The notes under the pieces were generated by a model. It was not told where the DNA came from. It did no database searches and saw nothing but the letters and a program-made list of their open reading frames with translations. A DNA stretch of 64,000 nt, taken from positions 480,001-544,000 of the forward strand of contig CAWEYG010000003.1 in assembly GCA_963813155.1 (NCBI GenBank). Reading direction: 5' to 3'. Below are positions 20,413 to 31,891 of this stretch, in pieces (within the stretch, counting starts at the first letter, position 1; the number at the start of each line of letters is the position of its first letter). A program made the translations under genes and the position numbers. The stretch comes from an uncultured Acidobacteriota bacterium. Its GTDB lineage: Bacteria; Acidobacteriota; Thermoanaerobaculia; UBA5066; DATFVB01.

Positions 20413-21135
20413 ATGGCGGTCGCTCTCGCGCTCCTGACGTTCTTCTCGACGATGGCCGGAGGCATCGTCGGCCGCCGCGCCGGCAAGCAACTCAACGTCT
20501 TTCTCGGCCTCGCGGCGGGAATGTTGCTCGGAGCCGCCCTTTTCGACCTGCTGCCGGAGGGCCTGCAACTCGCGCAGGCGATGGGCCGTCCCCCGGTCTT
20601 CGTCACGGGGTTCGCGGCGGCGGGCTTCCTGGCGTTTCACCTCCTCGAGAAATTTCTCGCCATCCATTCGCACCCCGAGCCCCACTATGGAGAGCCCGGC
20701 CACTCGCACGTGGGAGACCTCGGGGCGCTGGCCGTCACGATTCACTCATTCTTCGACGGCGCTGCGATCGGCGTGGGATTCCAGGTCTCCAACGCGGCCG
20801 GTTTCGCCGTCGCCGGAGCCGTCATCGCGCACGATTTCTCGGACGGCCTCAACACGGCCATGCTTCTCAAGGACTCGACGGACTCCCGGGCCCGCGCCTG
20901 GCTCGTCGCGGACGCCGCCGCCCCCTGTGTGGGAGCGCTGGCAACCCTCCTCTGGCGTTTTCCGCCCGCGCTCCTCGTCCCGGCCCTCGGGATCTTCGGG
21001 GGGTTCTTCCTCTATCTCGGCGCGGCTCACCTGCTTCCGGAAGCGCACCGAAGGAAGACGGGCATTCCGGTTCTCCTCGCGACGATCGGTGGATTCTCGA
21101 TCCTGTTCGTCGTCTCGGCCCTGGTCTCCCCGTAG
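20413..21135 (+). CDS. ZIP family metal transporter
   Basis: 'AAG.LLG.A.FDLLPE', 'HSFFDG', 'HDFSDG', 'LLPEAH'. Confidence 0.92.
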   Translation: MAVALALLTFFSTMAGGIVGRRAGKQLNVFLGLAAGMLLGAALFDLLPEGLQLAQAMGRPPVFVTGFAAAGFLAFHLLEKFLAIHSHPEPHYGEPGHSHVGDLGALAVTIHSFFDGAAIGVGFQVSNAAGFAVAGAVIAHDFSDGLNTAMLLKDSTDSRARAWLVADAAAPCVGALATLLWRFPPALLVPALGIFGGFFLYLGAAHLLPEAHRRKTGIPVLLATIGGFSILFVVSALVSP

Positions 21136-22962: not shown

Positions 22963-25400
22963 TCAGAACGTGTACTTCACCCTTGCCGCGAGCGTGCGCG
23001 GGGGAATGACGTGCGTTCCTCCGAACGTCGAGAGCACGTTGTAAACGCCCTTCTTGTCGAACGCGTTTAAGAGATCGGCCTGAAGACTCAACGGTACGCC
23101 GATACCTTGCGAGATCCGCGCCGAGGGAGAAATTCCAGATCGTCCGGGGCTTGATCCGGTTCGGATCGAGGTTCGTGTTCGACGTGAAATTGATGTACGG
23201 ATATGCAAACGCGTTGTCCGGGTCCTGGAGGATCGTCTGATCGGCGCCCGTCACGAGGCCGGAGTCATACCGAACCACTATCCCCGCCCACACGCCGGAT
23301 TTCCCGAAGTCGTAGTTGAGGCCGCTCTGGATCTGGAGATTCTCATCATGATCGATGATGAAGGGTCCGCTGTTAATCGCGTCGAGAGCGCTCGGATCGA
23401 GGAACAAGGCCCGCCGGCCAGAGGCGGAATGTAGATGGCCCGAGTGTGTCCCACCGATGCGTAGCCGCGGAAACCGTCGACCGGTGCGAGATCCAGCCGA
23501 ACGTTCCAGCCGTGGAGCTTGCCGTGTTCGAACGCCAGCGGAAAGACAATCCCCGTGTTCTGAAACTGATCCTGATCCCCGGCGAAGTCCGACGTCTCGC
23601 CGCCAGAAATCGATATCCAACCGAAGGGAAGAGCCTACCTGTTGCTGAAGGCCGACGTCGTAGGCGTTCTGGCGCTCGGAAGGAACGAACAAGAGACCGT
23701 CCCCGAGAGCGCGCGACTGCTGAACGTCGGGTGGGGCAAGCGCGGCGGCCTCCGCCGAGGACGAAAAGAGAATGTTTTCGTACTCCGGTGTTTCGAAAAT
23801 CCTGTTGTACGAGGCACGAAGAACTGTTTTCGTCGATGGAATGTAATAGGACGATCCCCACCCGCGGCTGAAGCTGCGACTCCGTCAGTGGAAAACTGTT
23901 GTGGTCGTAGCGCAGGCCGACCTGAGCCGTGAAGTTCGAGAGGCGAATCGTGTCCTCGACAAATCCCGCGAGGTACGTGATCGTCTTCGACTCGTCGAAC
24001 TGGAAGAACGTTCCGCCGCGCGTCAGGTCGTACGGGGCGAGGTTCGGGTTGTAGGTGTCGGAGCCTGGGTCGTTGAGCGCCGGATCGGTGAGCCCGAAGG
24101 AAAACCGCTCCTGAATCGGGTAGCTCTTGAAGACCGCGCCGAACTTGAGCTCGTTCACGGCTCCGGCCTGGATCGAGAGCGTGGGCTGGACTCCGTAGTT
24201 GTCCAGGGACCGCTTCGAGTTCGTGATGACCGATGGATCGTTCGGGGAGCCGCGGTAAGTGAATCGATTGTTTCGGGCGAAGAGAGTGGTGTCGAGCACG
24301 GCGCTCGAGCCGAAGACATGCTGCCACCCCGCGTTCGCGTTCCAGTCGTTCGTTTCGACCGTGTTGTCGGTATTCGTGGCTTCCTCTGTGAACGTGTTGG
24401 TCACGTCCCGGTTGGTTCTGCCGATCAGGCCCGAGAGCCGGAAGCTGTCGCTGCCCTGGGGCGTCGTGCCGTCGAGACGGAGAAAAGCTCGTTCCGTGTC
24501 GCCGTGGTTGTGAAAGTTGTCGAAGTTGACGGGATCGAGGAAGCGGTCGGACTTCGATGCGTCCACAGATCCGAAATAGCCGAACGTCGAAGTGCCTCCT
24601 CCGACCGACGCGCCCGCATCGTATGTCTTGAACTGTGCTCCCCCCGCATGAACATCGCCGTGCGGCCCGCCAGTCCCGAGGCCGGATTTGGTCGTCAGGT
24701 TGATGACAGCCGCGATCTTCTCGCCGTATTCCGCCGGAACGTTCCCGTAGATGACCTCGGCGGACTGCAGGATTCCGGGATCGATCGAGTTCGAGAACGT
24801 CGTCCCGATCTGGTCCGAGATCGGCTGCCCGTCCACGACGTAGCTCTGCTGGCTGTGCGCGCCCTGAAAGTGATAGCGGCCGTTCTCGTCCTGAGAGAAA
24901 CCGGGAGCCTGAATGATCAGGGATTCCATCCCCCGGGACGGAGAGGCAGCCGGAGCGCGCTGAATCGACGATTTGTCGATGTCGACGTGCGACTGAGAGG
25001 AATCCGTCTCGAGGACGGCCGCCGGCTTTTCCGCCTCGACCTTGACGCTCGCCGAGACCGATTCGAGCTTCAGCGCTACCGGCTGCTCCACCGGGGACGT
25101 GCTCCGAACGTCGATCGCAAGGTGCTGGGTCGCGAAGCCCTGAACCTCGACGTGCAGCTCGTAGGGATTGAAAGGCACGTTGAAGAAAGAGTATCGGCCG
25201 TTGGCATCCGTCACGGCTTGCGCCTTGAACCCGGTGATGTCGTTGCGAAGGATGAGCGGTACGCCGGGCATCGGCTGCCCGTCGGGACCCGTGACGACAC
25301 CCCGCAGCGTGCCCGCAGAAATGGCTGCGTGAAGAGGAATCGCGAATGACCCGAGAGCGACCGTCAGCGTGAAAACGGTGACTAAAATACGAGTGTTCAA
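22963..25400 (-). CDS. TonB-dependent receptor with N-terminal carboxypeptidase-regulatory-like domain (several frameshifts in the 3' third)
   Basis: Signal peptide, plug 'PAEYG...AAVINLTTKSG', 'QLQPRVG', terminal 'RVKYTF'; TTG start after GGAGGAG. Confidence 0.88.
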
Positions 25401-25491
25401 GAGAACTCCTCCATTAATCCGAAATGGGACGATGCGCTCTCGCGGCGTAAAGTGCCGCGAGGCGATCCCGCGTTCGTGGATTTCGCTTCGG

Positions 25492-25875
25492 TTAGAGGAG
25501 GGTGGGAGGACCGCGAGGGAATGACTCGAGACGGAGACCCTCGACGGGAGGCTGATCGCTCGTCTGAAGGACAGCGTTCGTGGTGGCAAGCACGGGACGC
25601 AGGGGTGCGTGAAGCTGAAGGCCGACGAGGTGCTGACGCAGGCACGCGAGGCACGGCTCGACCTCGACAATCCGATCCTTGTGCCAGTGTGAAGCGGTTG
25701 GCTGGGCGCAGTCGACCTCATGGACCTGCTGGGGCGAGGCCGAGTCGTCCCCATTGAACCCTTCGAGAACGTTCGACGCGTGATGATGAATGGAGGTCCC
25801 GAGTGCCAGCTGCGCTGCCAGCAGGAGCAGCGCCGCGGCGGTCTCCAAAAGACGTGAAAACAGTCTCCGTCTCAT
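25492..25875 (-). CDS. DUF2946/CruR-like leader protein (signal, His-rich segment, CxxC, RGPP)
   Basis: Hydrophobic N-terminus, HHH/HWH, CLAC, C-terminal PRGPPTLL; directly upstream of the TonB-dependent receptor. Confidence 0.8.
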   Translation of the reverse strand: MRRRLFSRLLETAAALLLLAAQLALGTSIHHHASNVLEGFNGDDSASPQQVHEVDCAQPTASHWHKDRIVEVEPCLACLRQHLVGLQLHAPLRPVLATTNAVLQTSDQPPVEGLRLESFPRGPPTLL

Positions 25876-25883
25876 CGGCGTTC

Positions 25884-25936
25884 ACTATATCCCCTCGAGA
25901 CATTCCCCGCCTACGGACTGCGAATTTTGCTATGCT
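25884..25936. promoter_or_regulatory. Divergent -10 elements for the two leader ORFs
   Basis: TATAGT (minus, 25884-25889) 8 nt before ATG 25875; TGcTATGCT (plus, -10 at 25931-25936) 9 nt before ATG 25946. Confidence 0.55.
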
Positions 25937-25945
25937 AGCGTGCTC

Positions 25946-26272
25946 ATGAACGCATCCGCTCGAACCGGGAAAGCCTTTGCGCTCCTTGCCGCAACCCTTT
26001 TCCTGCTCGTCGTGGCTTCGTTCCATTCGGCCGCGGACAACGATCTCGGCCGTATCAATCCGGGGCATCGAGTAGCGCTCTTTTCGAGCGCCTCCCCGGC
26101 CGACACCTGCGCGGCCTGCACGCTCGACGGAATCTTGAGTGCGCGGCTCTCGCTGACCGTTCCCGTCGTCCCGCCGCAGGCAGTCGAGATCGTCACCCCG
26201 TCCATTCCCTCCGCACCCTTCGTTTCTCCCCGGGCTTCCGTCGAGAGCCGCCCCCCTCCGTCGATCGCCTGA
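25946..26272 (+). CDS. DUF2946/CzcI-like leader protein (signal, CxxC, RPPP)
   Basis: MNASARTGKAFALLAATLFLLVVASFH..., CAAC, C-terminal SRPPPSIA; directly upstream of the TolC-MFP-RND operon. Confidence 0.75.
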   Translation: MNASARTGKAFALLAATLFLLVVASFHSAADNDLGRINPGHRVALFSSASPADTCAACTLDGILSARLSLTVPVVPPQAVEIVTPSIPSAPFVSPRASVESRPPPSIA

Positions 26273-26321
26273 CGATTTTCCCCCGCGTCCTATTCGTTCT
26301 CGGATCGAGAGGAGGTTGGTT

Positions 26322-27604
26322 TTGCGATCGGGTTACATCCCGAGATTTTCATGGATTTTTCTGGCGATCTCGTCGGCTACCAGCATCGCCGCCGCACAGG
26401 AGGCGGTCCGCCTCACCCGTGCGCAGGCGCTCGCCGAGGCGCTCGCGAAAAATCCGCAGCTCGGGGCGATCCGGGCGCAGGTGGACGAAGCCCGGGCGGG
26501 AATCGCGCAGACGACGGCGTTTCCCGACCCGTCGTTCGCCTTCACCTCCGAACAGCAGAAAAGCCTCGGGAACCTGCGGTCGGCCCAGTCCCGCGACGTG
26601 GGCGCCAGTTTCACGATTCCCTTCCCCGATAAGTTCCGCCTGAATCGCCGGATCTCCGAGGCGGCCCTGCGGGCGGCGGAGTTCTCACTGACGCAGACCC
26701 AGCAGCAGATCGCGTCGGATACCGAAGCCGCCTTCGACGCGGTCCTGGTCGCCGAAGCCCAGCTCGAAAACGACACGGCATCGGAACATCTTTCGGAGGA
26801 CATCGTCCGGAAGACGCAGGCTCGTTACGACGCCGGCACCGTGGCCCGTCTCGATGTGCTCCAGGCCCGGGTCAACTTCTCCCAGGCGAGGAATCAGACG
26901 ATCGCCGATGACCGCGCGCTCATGACGGCCCGAGCATCCTTCGCCCGCGCGCTCGGCCTCCCGTCGGGAACCATTGTCGAGCCCGCCGAGAAGCTCGACG
27001 TGCCGCCGGCTCCGCCGGACCTCGGCGCGCTGGTCAAGATCGCGGAGGATCATCGTCCGGAACTGGCTTCCGCTGTTGCCCTGCGCGAAGGCGCCCGCTT
27101 CGCGGTCACGCTCGCAAAGGAGTTCTGGTTTCCGGACCTGAACATTTCGCTGTTCCGAAACTTCACGGCCGGGGCTCCGGCGGCGTATTCGACGGCCGGG
27201 AGCTTCGCCGTTCCGCTTTTCTTCTGGCAACACGAAAAGGGAGACGTTGCCGCCGCCGAAGCGAAACAGGTGGAGCTCGCGGCCGACGAAAGCGTCACCC
27301 GGGCGCAGGTGGATCTCGAAGTCCGCACCGCCTACGCGTCCGCCGACACCGCGCGCCGTCAGGCCCTCTGGATCCGCGACGAACTTACTCCCCCAGGCGC
27401 GCGAAGAGTACGAGGTGGCGTCGAAGAGCTACGCGCTCGGCGGATCCTCGGCCCTCGATCTCATCAACGCCAAGACGGCCCTGCTCGGCGGCCCAGACCC
27501 AGTACGTCCAGGCCCTCGGAGCGGTCAACGACGCGCAGGCGCAGCTCGAGCTGGCGGTCGGCGCCCCTTTGCCTCCCGCCTTCAACCGAAGGAGCTCCTC
27601 ATGA
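26322..27604 (+). CDS. TolC family outer-membrane factor (CzcC-like), frameshifted near the 3' end
   Basis: Signal, 'AL..NP.L', 'RY.AG.V.RLDVLQA', 'RPEL', 'Y.LG..S.LDL'. Confidence 0.88.
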
Positions 27605-28758
27605 ACCCTGACCCGCTCCGAATTGCGCGCGCCGTCTTGATCGCGACGAGTGCTCTCCTCCTCTGTTCGGCGTGCTCGTCCAAGCGCCAGGACGGTGGCT
27701 CTCCCGCGACTTCCAGCGACGCGCCTTCGGGCCTCCGCCTTTCCGCGGACCAACGTCAGAAGGTCACGGTCGCGGAAGTCCGGGCCACGACCTTCCGCCG
27801 CACTCTCGAGACGACCGGAACCGTGACCTTCGACCAAAACGCCTCCACTCAGGTGATCGCGGGAATATCGGGCCCGGTTTCCCGCATCCTCGTTCCCCTG
27901 GGGGAGAACGTCGCGGCCGGACAGCCGCTGGCGGAGGTGACTTCGCCCGATTTCGCGTCCTCTCTCTCGGGCTACCGAAAGGCGGTCGCGACCGCCGGGA
28001 ACCTCCGGCGAATCGCCGATCTCGACCAGAAACTCTTCGACGCCGGAGGAATCCCGCGCCGTGACCTTCAACAGGCGGAGACCGATGCGCTGACCGCGGA
28101 GGCGGACCGAGACTCAGCGCTTGCCCAACTCCACTCGATCGGGATTCCCGACGCCGCGATTCACACGCTCCAGCAGGGAAAGGCCGTTACGGAAGTCAAG
28201 GCGGTCATCCGCGCTCCCATCGCAGGCACGGTCGTCGAAAAGCTCATCTCGCCCGGGCAACTTGTGGCCGCGGGAACGACGCCCTGCTTCACCGTTGCGA
28301 ATCTCTCGACGGTCTGGATCCTCGCCAACGTTTTCGAGAAGGACATTCCCTTTGTCGACCGAGGAGACCCGGCCGACATATCAACGGGCCTGGGAACCAC
28401 GCTTCCGGGCCGGGTCGACTACATTTCGGCCCTCGTGGATCCCTCGACTCGAGCGATCTCCGTCCGCATCGTCGCGCAGAATCCGCGAGGAGCTCTTCGG
28501 AAGGATCTGTACGTCAGCGTCGCAATTCACTCGAGCCGCGACATCCGCGGACTCCTCGTGCCGGCTTCGTCCATCCTTCGGAACGACGAAAACCTGCCGT
28601 TTGTTTTCGCCGAGCAGCCTGACGGTTCGTTCGGGCGCCGACGGGTCGAAATTGCGAACCGAATCGGCGATGCCTACCAGATTGCCTCGGGCCTGCGCGA
28701 GGGCGAACGAATCATCGTGGAGGGCGGACTGTTTCTCCAGTTTGCCGAGAGCCAGTGA
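27601..28758 (+). CDS. RND periplasmic adaptor (CzcB/CusB-like lipoprotein)
   Basis: Lipobox-like CSAC, 'IRAPIAGTVVE', 'VANLSTVWILANVFEKD', 'VDPSTR'. Confidence 0.9.
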   Translation: MNPDPLRIARAVLIATSALLLCSACSSKRQDGGSPATSSDAPSGLRLSADQRQKVTVAEVRATTFRRTLETTGTVTFDQNASTQVIAGISGPVSRILVPLGENVAAGQPLAEVTSPDFASSLSGYRKAVATAGNLRRIADLDQKLFDAGGIPRRDLQQAETDALTAEADRDSALAQLHSIGIPDAAIHTLQQGKAVTEVKAVIRAPIAGTVVEKLISPGQLVAAGTTPCFTVANLSTVWILANVFEKDIPFVDRGDPADISTGLGTTLPGRVDYISALVDPSTRAISVRIVAQNPRGALRKDLYVSVAIHSSRDIRGLLVPASSILRNDENLPFVFAEQPDGSFGRRRVEIANRIGDAYQIASGLREGERIIVEGGLFLQFAESQ

Positions 28759-28806: not shown

Positions 28807-31800
28807 GTGATCAACCGGGTCGTTTCTTCGGCCCTGCGGCAGCCCTTCCTGGTAGTCCTCCTCGCGGTCATGCTCGTCGGAGCAGGCATCTGGTCCTTCT
28901 CGCGGCTTCCGGTCGACGCCTACCCCGACCTTTCGCCGCCGATGGTCGAGATCGTCACACAGTGGCCGGGCAAGGCCGCCGAAGAGGTCGAGCGGCTCAT
29001 CACGGTTCCGGTCGAGGTGGAGATGAACGGGATACCTCGGATGACGGCCATTCGCTCCATCTCGCTCTACGGCCTCTCCGACGTCCGGCTCACGTTCGAG
29101 GACCGCACCGACAGCTATTTTGCCCGCCAGCGGGTGTTCGAACGAATCCCGGATCTCGCGCTGCCGGACGGAGTGGCTCCTTCCGTCGCTCCGCTCTTCT
29201 CCCCTTCCGGACTCATCTATCGGTACGTGCTCGACAGTCCGGACCGCTCTCCGATGGAGCTCAAGACGATCGAAGACTGGATCGTCGAACGCCAATTCAA
29301 ATCGGTACCCGGCGTGGCGGACGATTCCGGGTTCGGTGGCCAGACGATGCAGTACCAGGTGGTACTGGACCCAGCGAAAATCGCCGGCGCCGGCCTCTCC
29401 GTTCCCGCGGTCGTCGCGGCCCTCGCCGCGAATAATGGGAACGCCGGAGGCGGGTTTTACTCGCAGGGCGGCCAGTTCTATTACGTCCGCGGCCTCGGCC
29501 GACTTCAGACACCGGACGACATCGGCGACGTCGTGCTCACGGTTCACAACGGCGTGCCCGTGCTCGTCAAGGACGTCGCGCGCGTGGAGATCGGCCACGC
29601 GCCAAGGCTCGGCGAGTTCGGCTACGAGAAACGTGACGACGCCGTCGAAGGCGTGATGCTGATGCGCAAGGGGGAACAGGCGCAGGTCGTCTTGCGATCC
29701 ATTGAAGAGAAAACCAAAGAACTCAACCGCTCGATTCTTCCGAAAGACGTGAAAATCCATCCCTACTACGACAGAAGCGACCTGATCGCGCTCACGACGC
29801 GAACGGTCGAGGACAACCTGCTTCGGGGAATGGTTCTCGTCGTGATCATCCTGATCTTTTTTCTGTACGACATCCGCACGGGGATGGTCGTCGCGATCAC
29901 CATCCCGCTCGCGCTGCTTTTTTGCTTTCATCTGCCTCGACTTGCAGCACGTCCCCGCGAACCTCCTCTCGATCGGGGCGATCGACTTTGGAATCCTCGT
30001 CGATGGAGCGGTCGTGATGGTGGAGAACATCTACCGGCAGGTCGCACTTCGCGGGAACGCTCCATTTCGAATCCGTGAAGTGATCGCGGACGCGGCGGCG
30101 GAAGTGGACCGCCCCATCTTCTACGCCGTCGCGGTGATCGTCGCCGGCTTCCTTCCGATCTACGTGTTGTCCGGACCATCGGGGTTGCTCTTCAAGCCGA
30201 TGGCAGACACGATGATTTTCGCTTTGCTCGGCGCCCTGGTGCTGACCCTCACGCTGATTCCCGTTCTCTGCTCCTGGGCGCTTCGCAAAGGCGTTCGCGA
30301 GCGCCAGAATCGCCCGTTCGAATGGGTCAAAGGCATGTATGCCCGGGGACTCGACGGGTGTCTCGCCCATCCCTGGGCGACGACGGGGTTATCGGCCGCG
30401 ATCCTCGGGAGTCTCCCTTCTGTCTGATTCCCGCGATCGGAGCCGAGTTCATGCCCCACCTCGACGAAGGGGCGATCTGGGTCCGCGCGACCATGCCCTA
30501 CACGATCTCCTTCGAAGAGGCGGCCAAGGTCTCGCCTCAGGTCCGCGACATCCTTCGCTCGTTCCCTCAGGTCACCGTGGTCGCATCCGAGCTCGGCCGG
30601 CCGGACGACGGCACCGATCCGACCGGGTTTCTTCAACGACGAGTTCTACGTCGGCTTGAAGCCTTATCGTGAATGGACGGGGCCCTACCGGACGAAACAG
30701 CAGTTGATCGCGGCAATCGACAAGAAGCTGAAGGTTTTCCCGGGAATCATCTTCAACTATACGCAACCCGCCGAGGACGCCGTCGACGAGGCGGAGACCG
30801 GACTGAAGAGCGCGCTCGCAGTGAAGGTCTTCGGCCCCGATCTCTCCACTCTGGAATCGAAAGGGAAAGAGATCAAACGGGTGTTGGAGGGCGTCCACGG
30901 TATCGGCGGGCTCAGCCTCGTGCAGGAGCTCGGCCAGCCCAGCCTGACCGTGACGATCGATCGCGGCCAAATCGCCCGCTACGGCGTGAACGTCGCCGAC
31001 GTCAACGGCCTGATCGAGGCCGCAGTCGGCGGAACGGTGGCCACGCAGGTCGTTCAGGGGGAAGAGCTGTTCGACCTGGTGGTCCGCCTCGAGCCGAGGT
31101 TCCGGGAGAGCGCCGACGAGATCGGAAACATCCTGGTCGCGACACCGGGCGGTGCGCAGATCCCGCTCAAAGAGCTCGCGGACATCCGGATCGTCAACGG
31201 CGCCTCGTTCATCTATCGCGAGGACAACTCGCGCTACATCGGAGTCCAGTATTCCGTCGCCGGCCGGGACCTCGCCGGAGCGGTCGAGGATGCTCAACGA
31301 CAGATCGCGGCGAAGGTCAGGCTGCCCGAAGGCTACCGGATCGTCTGGGGGGGTGAATACAAGGAATACACCTCGTCGCGACGACAACTCAGGTTCGTCC
31401 TCCCGCTGACGCTGTTCCTCATCTTTCTGCTCCTTTTCGCCCTGTACAGCAACTTCAAGTTCCCCGTGATCACGGTGTCGCGGTCATCCTGTCCTCGCCG
31501 GTCGGCGGGCTCGTCGGCCCTATGGATCACCGGAACGCCGTTCTCCGTCTCCTCCGGAATCGGGTTTCTCGCGCTCTTCGGGGTCTCGGTGCAGACCGCC
31601 GTCATCTACATCTCGTATGCGAACGAGCTGCGGCGCGATTCCGGGCTGGGTATTCGCGAAGCAACGAGGGAGGCGGCGCTCCTCCGGCTGCGGCCGATCA
31701 TGATGACGGCCCTCGTGGCGGCCTTCGGATTGCTTCCGGCCGCTCTTTCAACAGGCATCGGCTCCGACTCCCAGCGACCGTTTGCCCTCGTCATTGTCGG

Positions 31801-31891
31801 CGGTCTCTTTTCCCGGCTTCTGATCAGCGTCTTCCTGATGCCCGCCCTCTATTCGATCGTCGCCCGGCCGGGAGACCGGCTCGAGGTCTGA
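28807..31891 (+). CDS. CusA/CzcA family heavy-metal efflux RND transporter (at least 4 frameshifts; start may be 28755)
   Basis: 'LPVDAYPDLS', 'ANLLSIGAIDFGILVDGAVVMVEN', 'EFMPHLDEG', 'RLRPIMMTALVA..GLLPAA...GIGSDSQRP.A'. Confidence 0.9.

Follow-up and report, generated by a model that had tools for sequence, protein, structure and literature searches.

Experiments on CutF, a small exported protein encoded ahead of the multicopper oxidase gene cutO in Rhodobacter capsulatus, establish that Cu-dependent, EF-P-sensitive ribosome stalling at a C-terminal PPP motif melts a stem-loop that hides the next gene's Shine-Dalgarno (SD) sequence (PMC9973294; bioRxiv 10.1101/2025.02.05.636593). CruR, ahead of bfrG in Bordetella pertussis (PMC9426467), is a related leader protein with an RAPP motif, and SecM-secA, ApdA and ApdP combine an N-terminal localisation signal with a motif resembling R-x-P-P that ends a few codons short of the stop, and in each the arrested ribosome opens RNA structure in which a downstream SD is hidden (PMC10987492; PMC12992588). 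We find that a 64,000-nucleotide stretch of DNA from an uncultured Acidobacteriota bacterium (assembly GCA_963813155.1, contig CAWEYG010000003.1, positions 480,001 to 544,000; hereafter the window, meaning the whole stretch that was analysed) carries a 108-residue open reading frame (ORF) of this architecture at 25946..26272 on the plus strand, starting with ATG at 25946 and followed by the genes of a resistance-nodulation-division (RND) efflux system. Our analysis suggests, with a probability of roughly 0.6, that this ORF is a cis-acting CutF/CruR (DUF2946-like) regulatory leader ahead of a Cus/Czc-type metal efflux operon.

The leader protein, putatively exported, belongs to a conserved family of small proteins. 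We aligned it with 29 homologues of 86-111 residues found at E values down to 2.8e-18 (alignment A1), one of them placed in Thermoanaerobaculia by its source name; relatives overall span 86-128 residues, and a profile search of 1.84 billion representative proteins returns only nine matches at E ≤ 0.001, with a 573-residue match at E 5.2e-4 in that search. Its N-terminus has two basic residues (R6 and K9) ahead of a 15-residue hydrophobic stretch (residues 10-24, AFALLAATLFLLVVA; codons 25973..26017, plus strand; Kyte-Doolittle mean 2.75 from residue 10), a putative Sec signal or signal anchor as judged by hydropathy only. Directly past this segment, S25-F26-H27 (26018-26026) is invariant, and a signal-peptidase cut before S25 would leave an X-X-His N-terminus, the classic amino-terminal Cu(II)- and Ni(II)-binding (ATCUN) pattern; cleavage there is doubtful because the preceding residue is not always small.

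Conservation across A1 is strongest in a few blocks. The SFHS block and a D-x-C-x-A-C-x-L-D-G block are invariant, a DND block is near-invariant (at least 90%), and the C-terminus reads, near-invariantly, P-F-V-x-P-R-A-S-V-(D/E)-S-R-P-P-P followed by two or three residues and the stop. The earlier note on this DNA had singled out RPPP, and the family bears out that choice: R102-P-P-P105, encoded by CGC CCC CCT CCG at 26249..26260 (plus strand), is RPPP in 29 of the 30 A1 rows and RSPP in the other, so that a near-invariant R-x-P-P sits two to three codons before the stop in the close relatives of a conserved small-protein family, which makes it a putative programmed stall site. In seven small relatives at a greater distance (31-44% identity) the PFVxPRASV block is gone, and the motif is RPPP (three), RAPP (three) or RGPP (one), giving R-x-P-P in 37/37 proteins of the plus-strand family. 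Among XPPP contexts, RPPP gave the strongest stalling in E. coli without EF-P (PMC4176338), and RSPP is described as partly arrest-permissive (PMC12992588).

The second constant feature is the pair C55-A-A-C58 (codons 26108..26119, plus strand), a putative metal-binding CxxC motif by its invariance and its fixed spacing to R-x-P-P. C55, A57 and C58 are invariant in alignments A1, A3 and A5, and H27, C55, A57, C58, R102, P104 and P105 remain so even when the distant relatives and a divergent paralogue, described below, are included. The second cysteine and the arginine are separated by exactly 43 residues in 36 of the 37 family proteins, the 37th being the RSPP variant, which the pattern does not count; R-x-P-P lies two to three residues before the stop in 35 of these 36 and five before it in P0037. 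The constancy of this distance through changes of the motif itself suggests that the spacing serves as a molecular ruler spanning the ribosomal tunnel and the translocon.

Taken together, these properties resemble those of CutF. Both proteins are small (the CutF-like size limit is <150 residues, PMC9973294 section 10; 108 here), of exported type (putatively so here) and equipped with a cysteine metal motif a near-constant distance from a C-terminal proline motif (RPPP at residues 102-105 of 108 here), that distance being about 45 residues in CutF, 45 also in CruR, and 43 here (PMC9426467 section 9; PMC9973294 discussion). Both leave a short gap to the next gene, within the CutF-like range (PMC9973294) at 49 nt in the window and at 51, 46 and 43 nt in three related loci (L001, L002 and L003, respectively; 43-51 nt in all), and in both the next SD is shielded by a stem-loop, here by prediction, with the same proposed logic that metal prolongs stalling and exposes the SD. 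What most often lies downstream of CutF-like proteins is the outer-membrane efflux protein (OEP) of an RND system, as here, and TonB-like proteins come next (PMC9973294 section 11). The differences from CutF are a CxxC rather than CxxxC motif, an efflux-pump OEP rather than a multicopper oxidase downstream, an anti-SD that falls within the stall codons themselves in the window and in L003, where CutF has an intergenic stem-loop, an Acidobacteriota host and the lack of a significant DUF2946 match.

CruR shares the CXXC motif (C55 and C58, both invariant, correspond to it), an R-x-P-P near the C-terminus (three residues before the end in CruR), a conserved spacing between the two (45 in CruR; 43 in 36/37 here and 42 in 24/24 members of the divergent-paralogue family), an export signal (putative here) and the first position in a metal-related operon (PMC9426467). 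The position of the motif is thus of the CruR type (two to three residues before the end in 35/36), with RPPP the prevailing form here and RAPP and RGPP in three and one of the distant relatives. CruR itself differs in its RAPP motif, in EF-P independence and in acting through Rho-dependent termination over a 162-nt gap, with copper relieving the arrest; regulation of the opposite sign would suit the plus-strand leader, which has RPPP and stands 49 nt ahead of an efflux operon. SecM, ApdA and ApdP are monitors of Sec or YidC function and are encoded ahead of sec or yidC genes, whereas the genes that follow this leader are those for an OEP, a membrane-fusion protein and an RND pump rather than secA, secDF or yidC; RPPP, moreover, is not among their experimentally proven arrest motifs in the parts of those papers available. 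CzcI, directly upstream of the heavy-metal RND operon czcCBA in Cupriavidus metallidurans, is also small and is grouped with CutF-like proteins (PMC9973294), but stalling is not expected for it because it lacks a C-terminal proline motif.

The RNA and synteny comparison covers the window and L001-L003, Acidobacteriota metagenome-assembled-genome loci recovered from 17 pattern matches, the other 26 of the 29 close homologues and the distant relatives entering at the protein level. In the window and in 3/3 related loci the gene order after the leader is the same, namely OEP, HlyD_D23 membrane-fusion and ACR_tran RND pump genes. GAGAGGAGGT, the TTG start codon and the CGN TCG GG that follows are kept in 4/4 loci, and in all four the SD is predicted to be paired, its four G each with a per-base paired probability of 0.92-1.0 and its central A with one of 0.68-1.0 (110/45-nt context).

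In the window, the predicted partner lies at the end of the leader. The earlier note had proposed that 26255-26266 (CCTCCGTCGATC) pairs with 26303-26315 (GATCGAGAGGAGG), and the bases are indeed complementary as it described: the 5' arm (26255..26266, plus strand) is an anti-SD CCUCC plus UCGAUC formed by the codons CCT CCG TCG ATC of P104, P105, S106 and I107, with the leader stop TGA (26270..26272, plus strand) 4 nt past it, and the 3' arm (26303..26315, plus strand) includes the GGAGG SD at 26311-26315, ahead of the TTG at 26322, which lies 6 nt past GGAGG in frame with the TolC/CusC/CzcC-like OEP gene (26322..27600, plus strand; Pfam OEP PF02321, E 5.3e-36). This helix of 5 bp, a 1x2 internal loop and 6 bp is present in the minimum free energy (MFE) structure of 26240-26330 (-31.5 kcal/mol) and also in that of 26180-26400. 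Ensemble pair probabilities are 0.93-1.0 for the UCGAUC/GAUCGA stem and 0.71-0.73 for the CCUCC/GGAGG stem in 155-nt and 300-nt contexts; in a 90-nt context the latter shifts register to a neighbouring C-run. RNAalifold offers an alternative that joins the leader-end CGAUCGC (26262-26268) to GCGAUCG (26324-26330) at the start codon, which we set aside at an ensemble probability of about 0 in the window; this outer helix reaches 0.42 in L002 and 0.05-0.06 in L003 and is broken in L001. The same complementarity can be extended to (U)CGAUCGC at 26261-26268 and GCGAUCG(G) at 26324-26331, where one compensatory U-A to C-G change keeps the pairing in L002/L003.

Relative to other sites in the window, occlusion of the OEP SD stands out. 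The 244 GGAGG sites on both strands have a median opening energy of 5.0 kcal/mol and a 95th percentile of 9.55 kcal/mol, and the orthologous SDs require 9.53 (window), 7.04 (L001), 12.61 (L002) and 10.42 kcal/mol (L003), values at least matched by fractions of 0.057, 0.197, 0.004 and 0.029 of these 244 background sites, respectively. Of the 16 GGAGG sites in the window with a start codon and an ORF of 150 residues or more behind them, the two highest opening energies are those of the SD of a TonB-dependent receptor gene, discussed below (9.64 kcal/mol), and the OEP SD (9.53 kcal/mol); the next is 7.08.

The footprint of a ribosome extends from about -15 to +15 nt, with mRNA unwound from about +11; a helicase activity of the ribosome was reportedly described by Takyar et al. 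in 2005, as the CutF preprint has it. To model a ribosome at the motif we forced its footprint to be unpaired, from -15 to +12 or +15, with the P site on the third motif codon. This placement follows the CruR toeprint, in which the third and fourth motif codons occupy the P and A sites (PMC12992588), and puts the 5' arm of the helix at positions +1 to +12 relative to the stalled ribosome. Under such masks the energy needed to open the SD in the window falls from 9.5 to 5.5-5.6 kcal/mol for a ribosome stalled at RxPP and to 5.4 kcal/mol for a terminating one; the corresponding values are 10.4 to 5.4-6.7 and 4.2 in L003, 7.0 to 5.2-6.0 and 2.7 in L001, and 12.6 to 8.5-12.3 and 4.4 in L002. Clear relief under the RxPP-stall mask is thus predicted in 2/4 loci (window and L003), and the terminating-ribosome mask brings the SD to background accessibility in 4/4. 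The idea that a ribosome stalled at RPPP covers the 5' arm and frees the SD therefore stands in part: the mask takes the window from 9.5 to 5.5 kcal/mol, a background level, but the masked SD is still mostly paired (mean unpaired probability 0.15), and L001 and L002 gain little.

Codon choice at the motif is also unusual. In the four loci, the OEP, membrane-fusion and RND genes next to the leader use CCT for 16 of their 232 Pro codons (6.9%), whereas CCT makes up 4 of the 13 Pro codons in the RPPP(P) motifs (binomial 0.0098, with shared ancestry ignored) and 4 of the 8 in the RGPP motifs (in the window at 25509-25507, minus strand). It is the middle Pro codon in 3/4 loci (26255-26257 in the window; binomial 0.0012, rising to 0.014 when the window and L001 are taken to be a single lineage). 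Where CC comes next, CCT makes CCUCC, and a rare codon at the stall site could also slow decoding; the data are compatible with both.

These patterns are consistent with the following mechanism, which matches the one established by experiment for CutF and for which the comparative support at the protein level is strong. The hydrophobic N-terminal segment would target the nascent chain to the membrane. With the ribosome at R-P-P-P, the CxxC, 43 residues back, would be just out of the tunnel and translocon and free to bind metal, probably copper. Bound metal would prolong the polyproline pause, and the paused ribosome, then the terminating one 9-12 nt further on, would cover the pyrimidine-rich end of the leader, which would otherwise pair with the GGAGG of the TTG-initiated OEP gene; the exposed SD would then allow the efflux genes to be translated. 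The helix described above would be the window's version of the SD-occluding structure. The parts of this proposal differ in strength: that the leader is a CutF/CruR-type regulator is very probable, that R-P-P-P is a programmed pause is likely, that a pause or termination opens the SD-occluding structure and so turns on the efflux genes stands at little better than even odds, and that this exact helix is the operative one is somewhat doubtful. Family conservation, motif spacing, synteny, the predicted SD occlusion and its predicted relief under a ribosome footprint are the observations from which we infer that the ribosome stalls, that metal is bound, in which direction regulation runs and that this helix rather than a neighbouring one is used in vivo.

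Several results weigh against this reading, beginning with the class of the protein. The window protein has no match to Pfam PF11162 (DUF2946) at E ≤ 10, let alone at the gathering score; DUF2946 is matched below threshold by 5 of the 30 A1 members (best E 0.27), by the plus-family relative P0036 (E 0.075) and by P0061, a relative of the divergent paralogue (15.7 bits against a cut-off of 23.7, over profile positions 8-117 of 117). Because the sequence match to DUF2946 stays below threshold, we file the leader as CutF/CruR-like by architecture, and its sequence homology to DUF2946 is unproven. Neither leader protein in the window matches Pfam or NCBIfam at threshold, a word-indexed search with the mixed profile A5 returns 53 proteins, none with a precomputed Pfam domain and hence no transitive link to DUF2946, and the ESM Atlas yields one cluster with 12% DUF2946-bearing members, at rank 23. 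The literature searched holds no paper combining DUF2946 with Acidobacteria, and the portion of the supplementary text of the two key papers that was covered holds no Acidobacteria entry. As for the motif, the Pro motif of CutF alone does not stall in a LepB reporter (PMC9973294 section 8), and most RAPP-like motifs from ordinary proteins cause no arrest in E. coli reporters, in a study whose motif search included RPPP (PMC10987492). In the OEP gene, too, comparison with the L003 protein by tblastn reveals apparent frameshifts at two places, near 27382-27392 and near 27473-27492.

At the RNA level, the pairing does not exceed expectation. The earlier note had argued that the TCGATC/GATCGA extension goes beyond what C-rich Pro codons give by chance, and composition-matched tests speak otherwise. 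The best duplex of the SD arm (26300-26318) with the upstream 100 nt has -18.4 kcal/mol, the mean of dinucleotide shuffles of those 100 nt being -19.27, and 64.6% of 2000 shuffles are at least as good; synonymous recoding of the last 23 leader codons gives duplexes as good or better in 28% of 2000 trials. The folding z-scores are -1.51 for 26240-26330 (equalled by 16 of 200 shuffles) and -0.65 for 26180-26400 (by 49 of 200). With the SD and downstream sequence fixed and the upstream 106 nt shuffled, the SD opening energy in the window is 9.53 against a mean of 8.11 kcal/mol (200 shuffles); the real value is reached by 23%, 50.5%, 2% and 23% of shuffles in the window, L001, L002 and L003, and shuffled upstream sequence alone yields 7.2-8.8 kcal/mol across the four loci. 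Occlusion of the SD is strong, and it comes mainly from the richness of the upstream RNA in C and pyrimidine (45% C and 72% pyrimidine in the window); since this RNA is 44-55% C across the four loci, nearly any arrangement of it occludes GGAGG, and the claim of an excess over chance is not supported. Occlusion is therefore largely compositional.

Nor is the partner of the SD conserved, as it shifts between the Pro codons and the first bases past the stop. The Pro codons are the main predicted partner in the window (0.71-0.73) and, in 70- and 200-nt-upstream contexts, in L003 (about 0.9-0.99), where a C-rich post-stop stretch is favoured in a 110-nt context (about 0.5); in L001 it is UCUCC directly past the stop (0.77), with the Pro codons as an alternative (about 0.4), and in L002 CCUUCC directly past the stop (0.99), the Pro codons there being CCG CCC CCG, with no CCUCC. 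Sequestration by the RPPP codons is thus predicted in the window, and in L003 in some contexts, but is not the conserved arrangement, L001 and L002 using a post-stop C/U stretch, and in these same two loci an RxPP-stalled ribosome barely relieves the SD. For the helix itself, 87.2% of 39 alignment cells are paired with one double change, a result equalled by 133 of 500 shuffles, so that covariation is not significant in a comparison that is underpowered with 4 sequences. The helix is one of several near-equivalent ways in which the C-rich leader end hides the SD and is, alone, no evidence of selection.

Among other explanations, one is plain, unregulated translational coupling, in which any ribosome finishing the leader would open the SD structure, OEP output would merely track that of the leader, and RPPP and CxxC would serve the protein's own function. 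It is favoured by the terminating ribosome, which relieves the SD at least as well as the stalled one in 4/4 loci (5.4, 2.7, 4.4 and 4.2 kcal/mol in the window, L001, L002 and L003), and by the location of the best anti-SD just past the stop in L001 and L002. Coupling would, however, leave unexplained the invariance of R-x-P-P, the exchange of RPPP, RAPP and RGPP at an exact 43-residue distance from CxxC and the fixed distance of two to three codons to the stop in 35/36 proteins, and published data on CutF and CruR show such motifs to be regulatory; we consider it unlikely. A similarly low probability attaches to the possibility that the small protein acts in trans, binding metal in the periplasm or membrane as an accessory to the pump, akin to CusF or CzcI, with the Pro motif serving structure or interaction and the helix a by-product of C-rich codons. 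Conserved blocks beyond the C-terminus (SFHS, DNDL and DxCxACxLDG), the shuffle controls that produce such a helix by chance from composition, and the grouping of CzcI, without a Pro motif, with the CutF-like proteins are all compatible with this; the exact CxxC-to-RxPP ruler, kept at 31-40% identity while intervening residues vary, the motif at the very C-terminus, the enrichment of rare CCT codons within it and the failure of cutF to complement in trans (PMC9973294) argue the other way.

The features held in common with CruR, namely CxxC, a C-terminal R-x-P-P and a spacing of roughly 45 residues, together with the RAPP and RGPP variants in the plus-strand family, would also suit transcriptional control of the CruR type, in which an RxPP-arrested ribosome shields the transcript from Rho, metal releases the arrest and termination follows before the OEP gene, the SD helix being incidental. 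The sign of such control would be wrong for an efflux pump because metal would switch the pump off, the gap is 49 nt here against 162 nt in cruR-bfrG (CruR homologues generally having long gaps), and a consensus scan found no intrinsic terminator-like site between leader and OEP gene (Rho sites being outside that scan), all of which leave this explanation quite improbable. A cis-acting CutF/CruR-type leader, acting on translation of the efflux genes, remains the reading we prefer.

A second, CruR-like leader gene mirrors the first, head to head with it. It lies on the minus strand at 25492..25875 and encodes a 127-residue protein whose N-terminus is hydrophobic and which carries HHH, HWH and CLAC motifs, ending in R-G-P-P-T-L-L-stop (alignments A3 and A4); the start codons of the two leaders are separated by 70 bp only (25876-25945). 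In its family the CxxC-to-motif spacing is 42 in 24/24 proteins (23 with RGPP and one with RAPP), and the motif lies three residues before the stop in 22 of the 24. A TTG-initiated TonB-dependent receptor gene begins 91 nt past this leader (SD GGAGG 25412-25408 and TTG start 25400-25398, within 25398..25412 on the minus strand), with Pfam CarboxypepD_reg and with Plug just under the cut-off. The receptor SD pairs, with a probability of 0.97-0.99, with CCUCC at 25501-25497, an anti-SD just past the RGPP codons (25515-25504, minus strand) and at positions +9 to +13 relative to a ribosome that stalls on RGPP; with the footprint of that ribosome masked, opening takes 4.7-4.8 instead of 9.6 kcal/mol. 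The divergent leader pair is present in 3/3 related loci; in L002 and L003 the receptor SD pairs partially (about 0.5) with a CCUCC-type sequence in or beside the RGPP codons, and in L001 it does not.

An RGPP leader ahead of a TonB-dependent receptor is the CruR-bfrG context and matches it directly, and the window thus holds both published prototypes, a PPP-type leader with a detoxification system and an RGPP/RAPP-type leader with a TonB-dependent transporter. The pairs P0002/P0058 and P0057/L002, each of a plus- and a minus-family member, suggest further genomes with both leaders.

Downstream of the OEP gene, the efflux operon continues with a CusB/CzcB-like membrane-fusion gene at 27601..28758 (plus strand; Pfam HlyD_D23, E 2.8e-45; NCBIfam TIGR01730 above cut-off) and a CusA/CzcA-family heavy-metal RND pump gene at 28807..31891 (plus strand; Pfam ACR_tran, with NCBIfam TIGR00914 the best match), whose reading frame is interrupted between about 30078 and 30656. 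Apparent frameshifts are also seen in the receptor gene (23373-25400, minus strand), and L001 and L002 have similar breaks in their copies of the OEP, RND and receptor genes. The frameshifts look like long-read homopolymer errors, gene decay being the alternative. A ZIP-family metal transporter gene at 20413-21132 (plus strand), about 5 kb away, suggests a metal-homeostasis neighbourhood, and no CusRS- or CueR-type regulator is seen among the eight neighbouring ORFs scanned.

Scanned against consensus elements, 25350-26450 yielded neither a sigma-70-like promoter nor, between the leader and the OEP gene, an intrinsic terminator, and an Rfam scan of 25200-26600 at E ≤ 1 gave three far-sub-threshold matches only, so that no known RNA family is found in that interval. 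ATG 25946 has no GGAGG-type SD upstream; TATGCT lies about 10 nt upstream of it, and similar -10-like hexamers occur in L001-L003. The plus-strand leader mRNA may be leaderless or nearly so. A U-rich run past the 3' arm was considered as part of a terminator, a reading dropped because the run is missing in L001-L003. A hairpin UCGGG-UUACAU-CCCGA followed by GAUUUUCAUG at 26328-26343, 4 nt past the TTG, was picked out as terminator-like; L002 and L003, but not L001, have comparable hairpins of 4 bp after the TTG.

More speculatively, the two divergent leaders may together form a transcription-factor-free copper homeostat, in which nascent-chain metal sensors lying head to head, 70 bp apart, pair an RGPP-type (EF-P-refractory, CruR-like) leader with an importer and an RPPP-type (EF-P-sensitive, CutF-like) leader with a Cus/Czc exporter, each with a rare-codon CCUCC in or just past its stall site as the anti-SD of a TTG-initiated gene. 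We hold this tentatively, as a possibility that is on balance improbable; if it is true, one metal signal would set import and export in opposite directions, and the exact 43- and 42-residue rulers and the exchange of RPPP, RAPP and RGPP would mean that polyproline and RAPP-type arrests are evolutionarily interchangeable modules. Regulators of the CutF/CruR kind are already known, and what this locus adds is a lineage out of reach of DUF2946, a motif that switches between RPPP, RAPP and RGPP while its ruler stays fixed, and a head-to-head importer/exporter pair. Small ORFs of this sort ahead of metal pumps or receptors should be annotated as leader genes rather than as hypothetical proteins, and the natural importer/exporter pair would allow both known modes of the mechanism to be compared at one locus. 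Metal sensing by nascent exported peptides of the CutF/CruR type would be extended to Acidobacteriota and to a lineage beyond the Pfam DUF2946 model.

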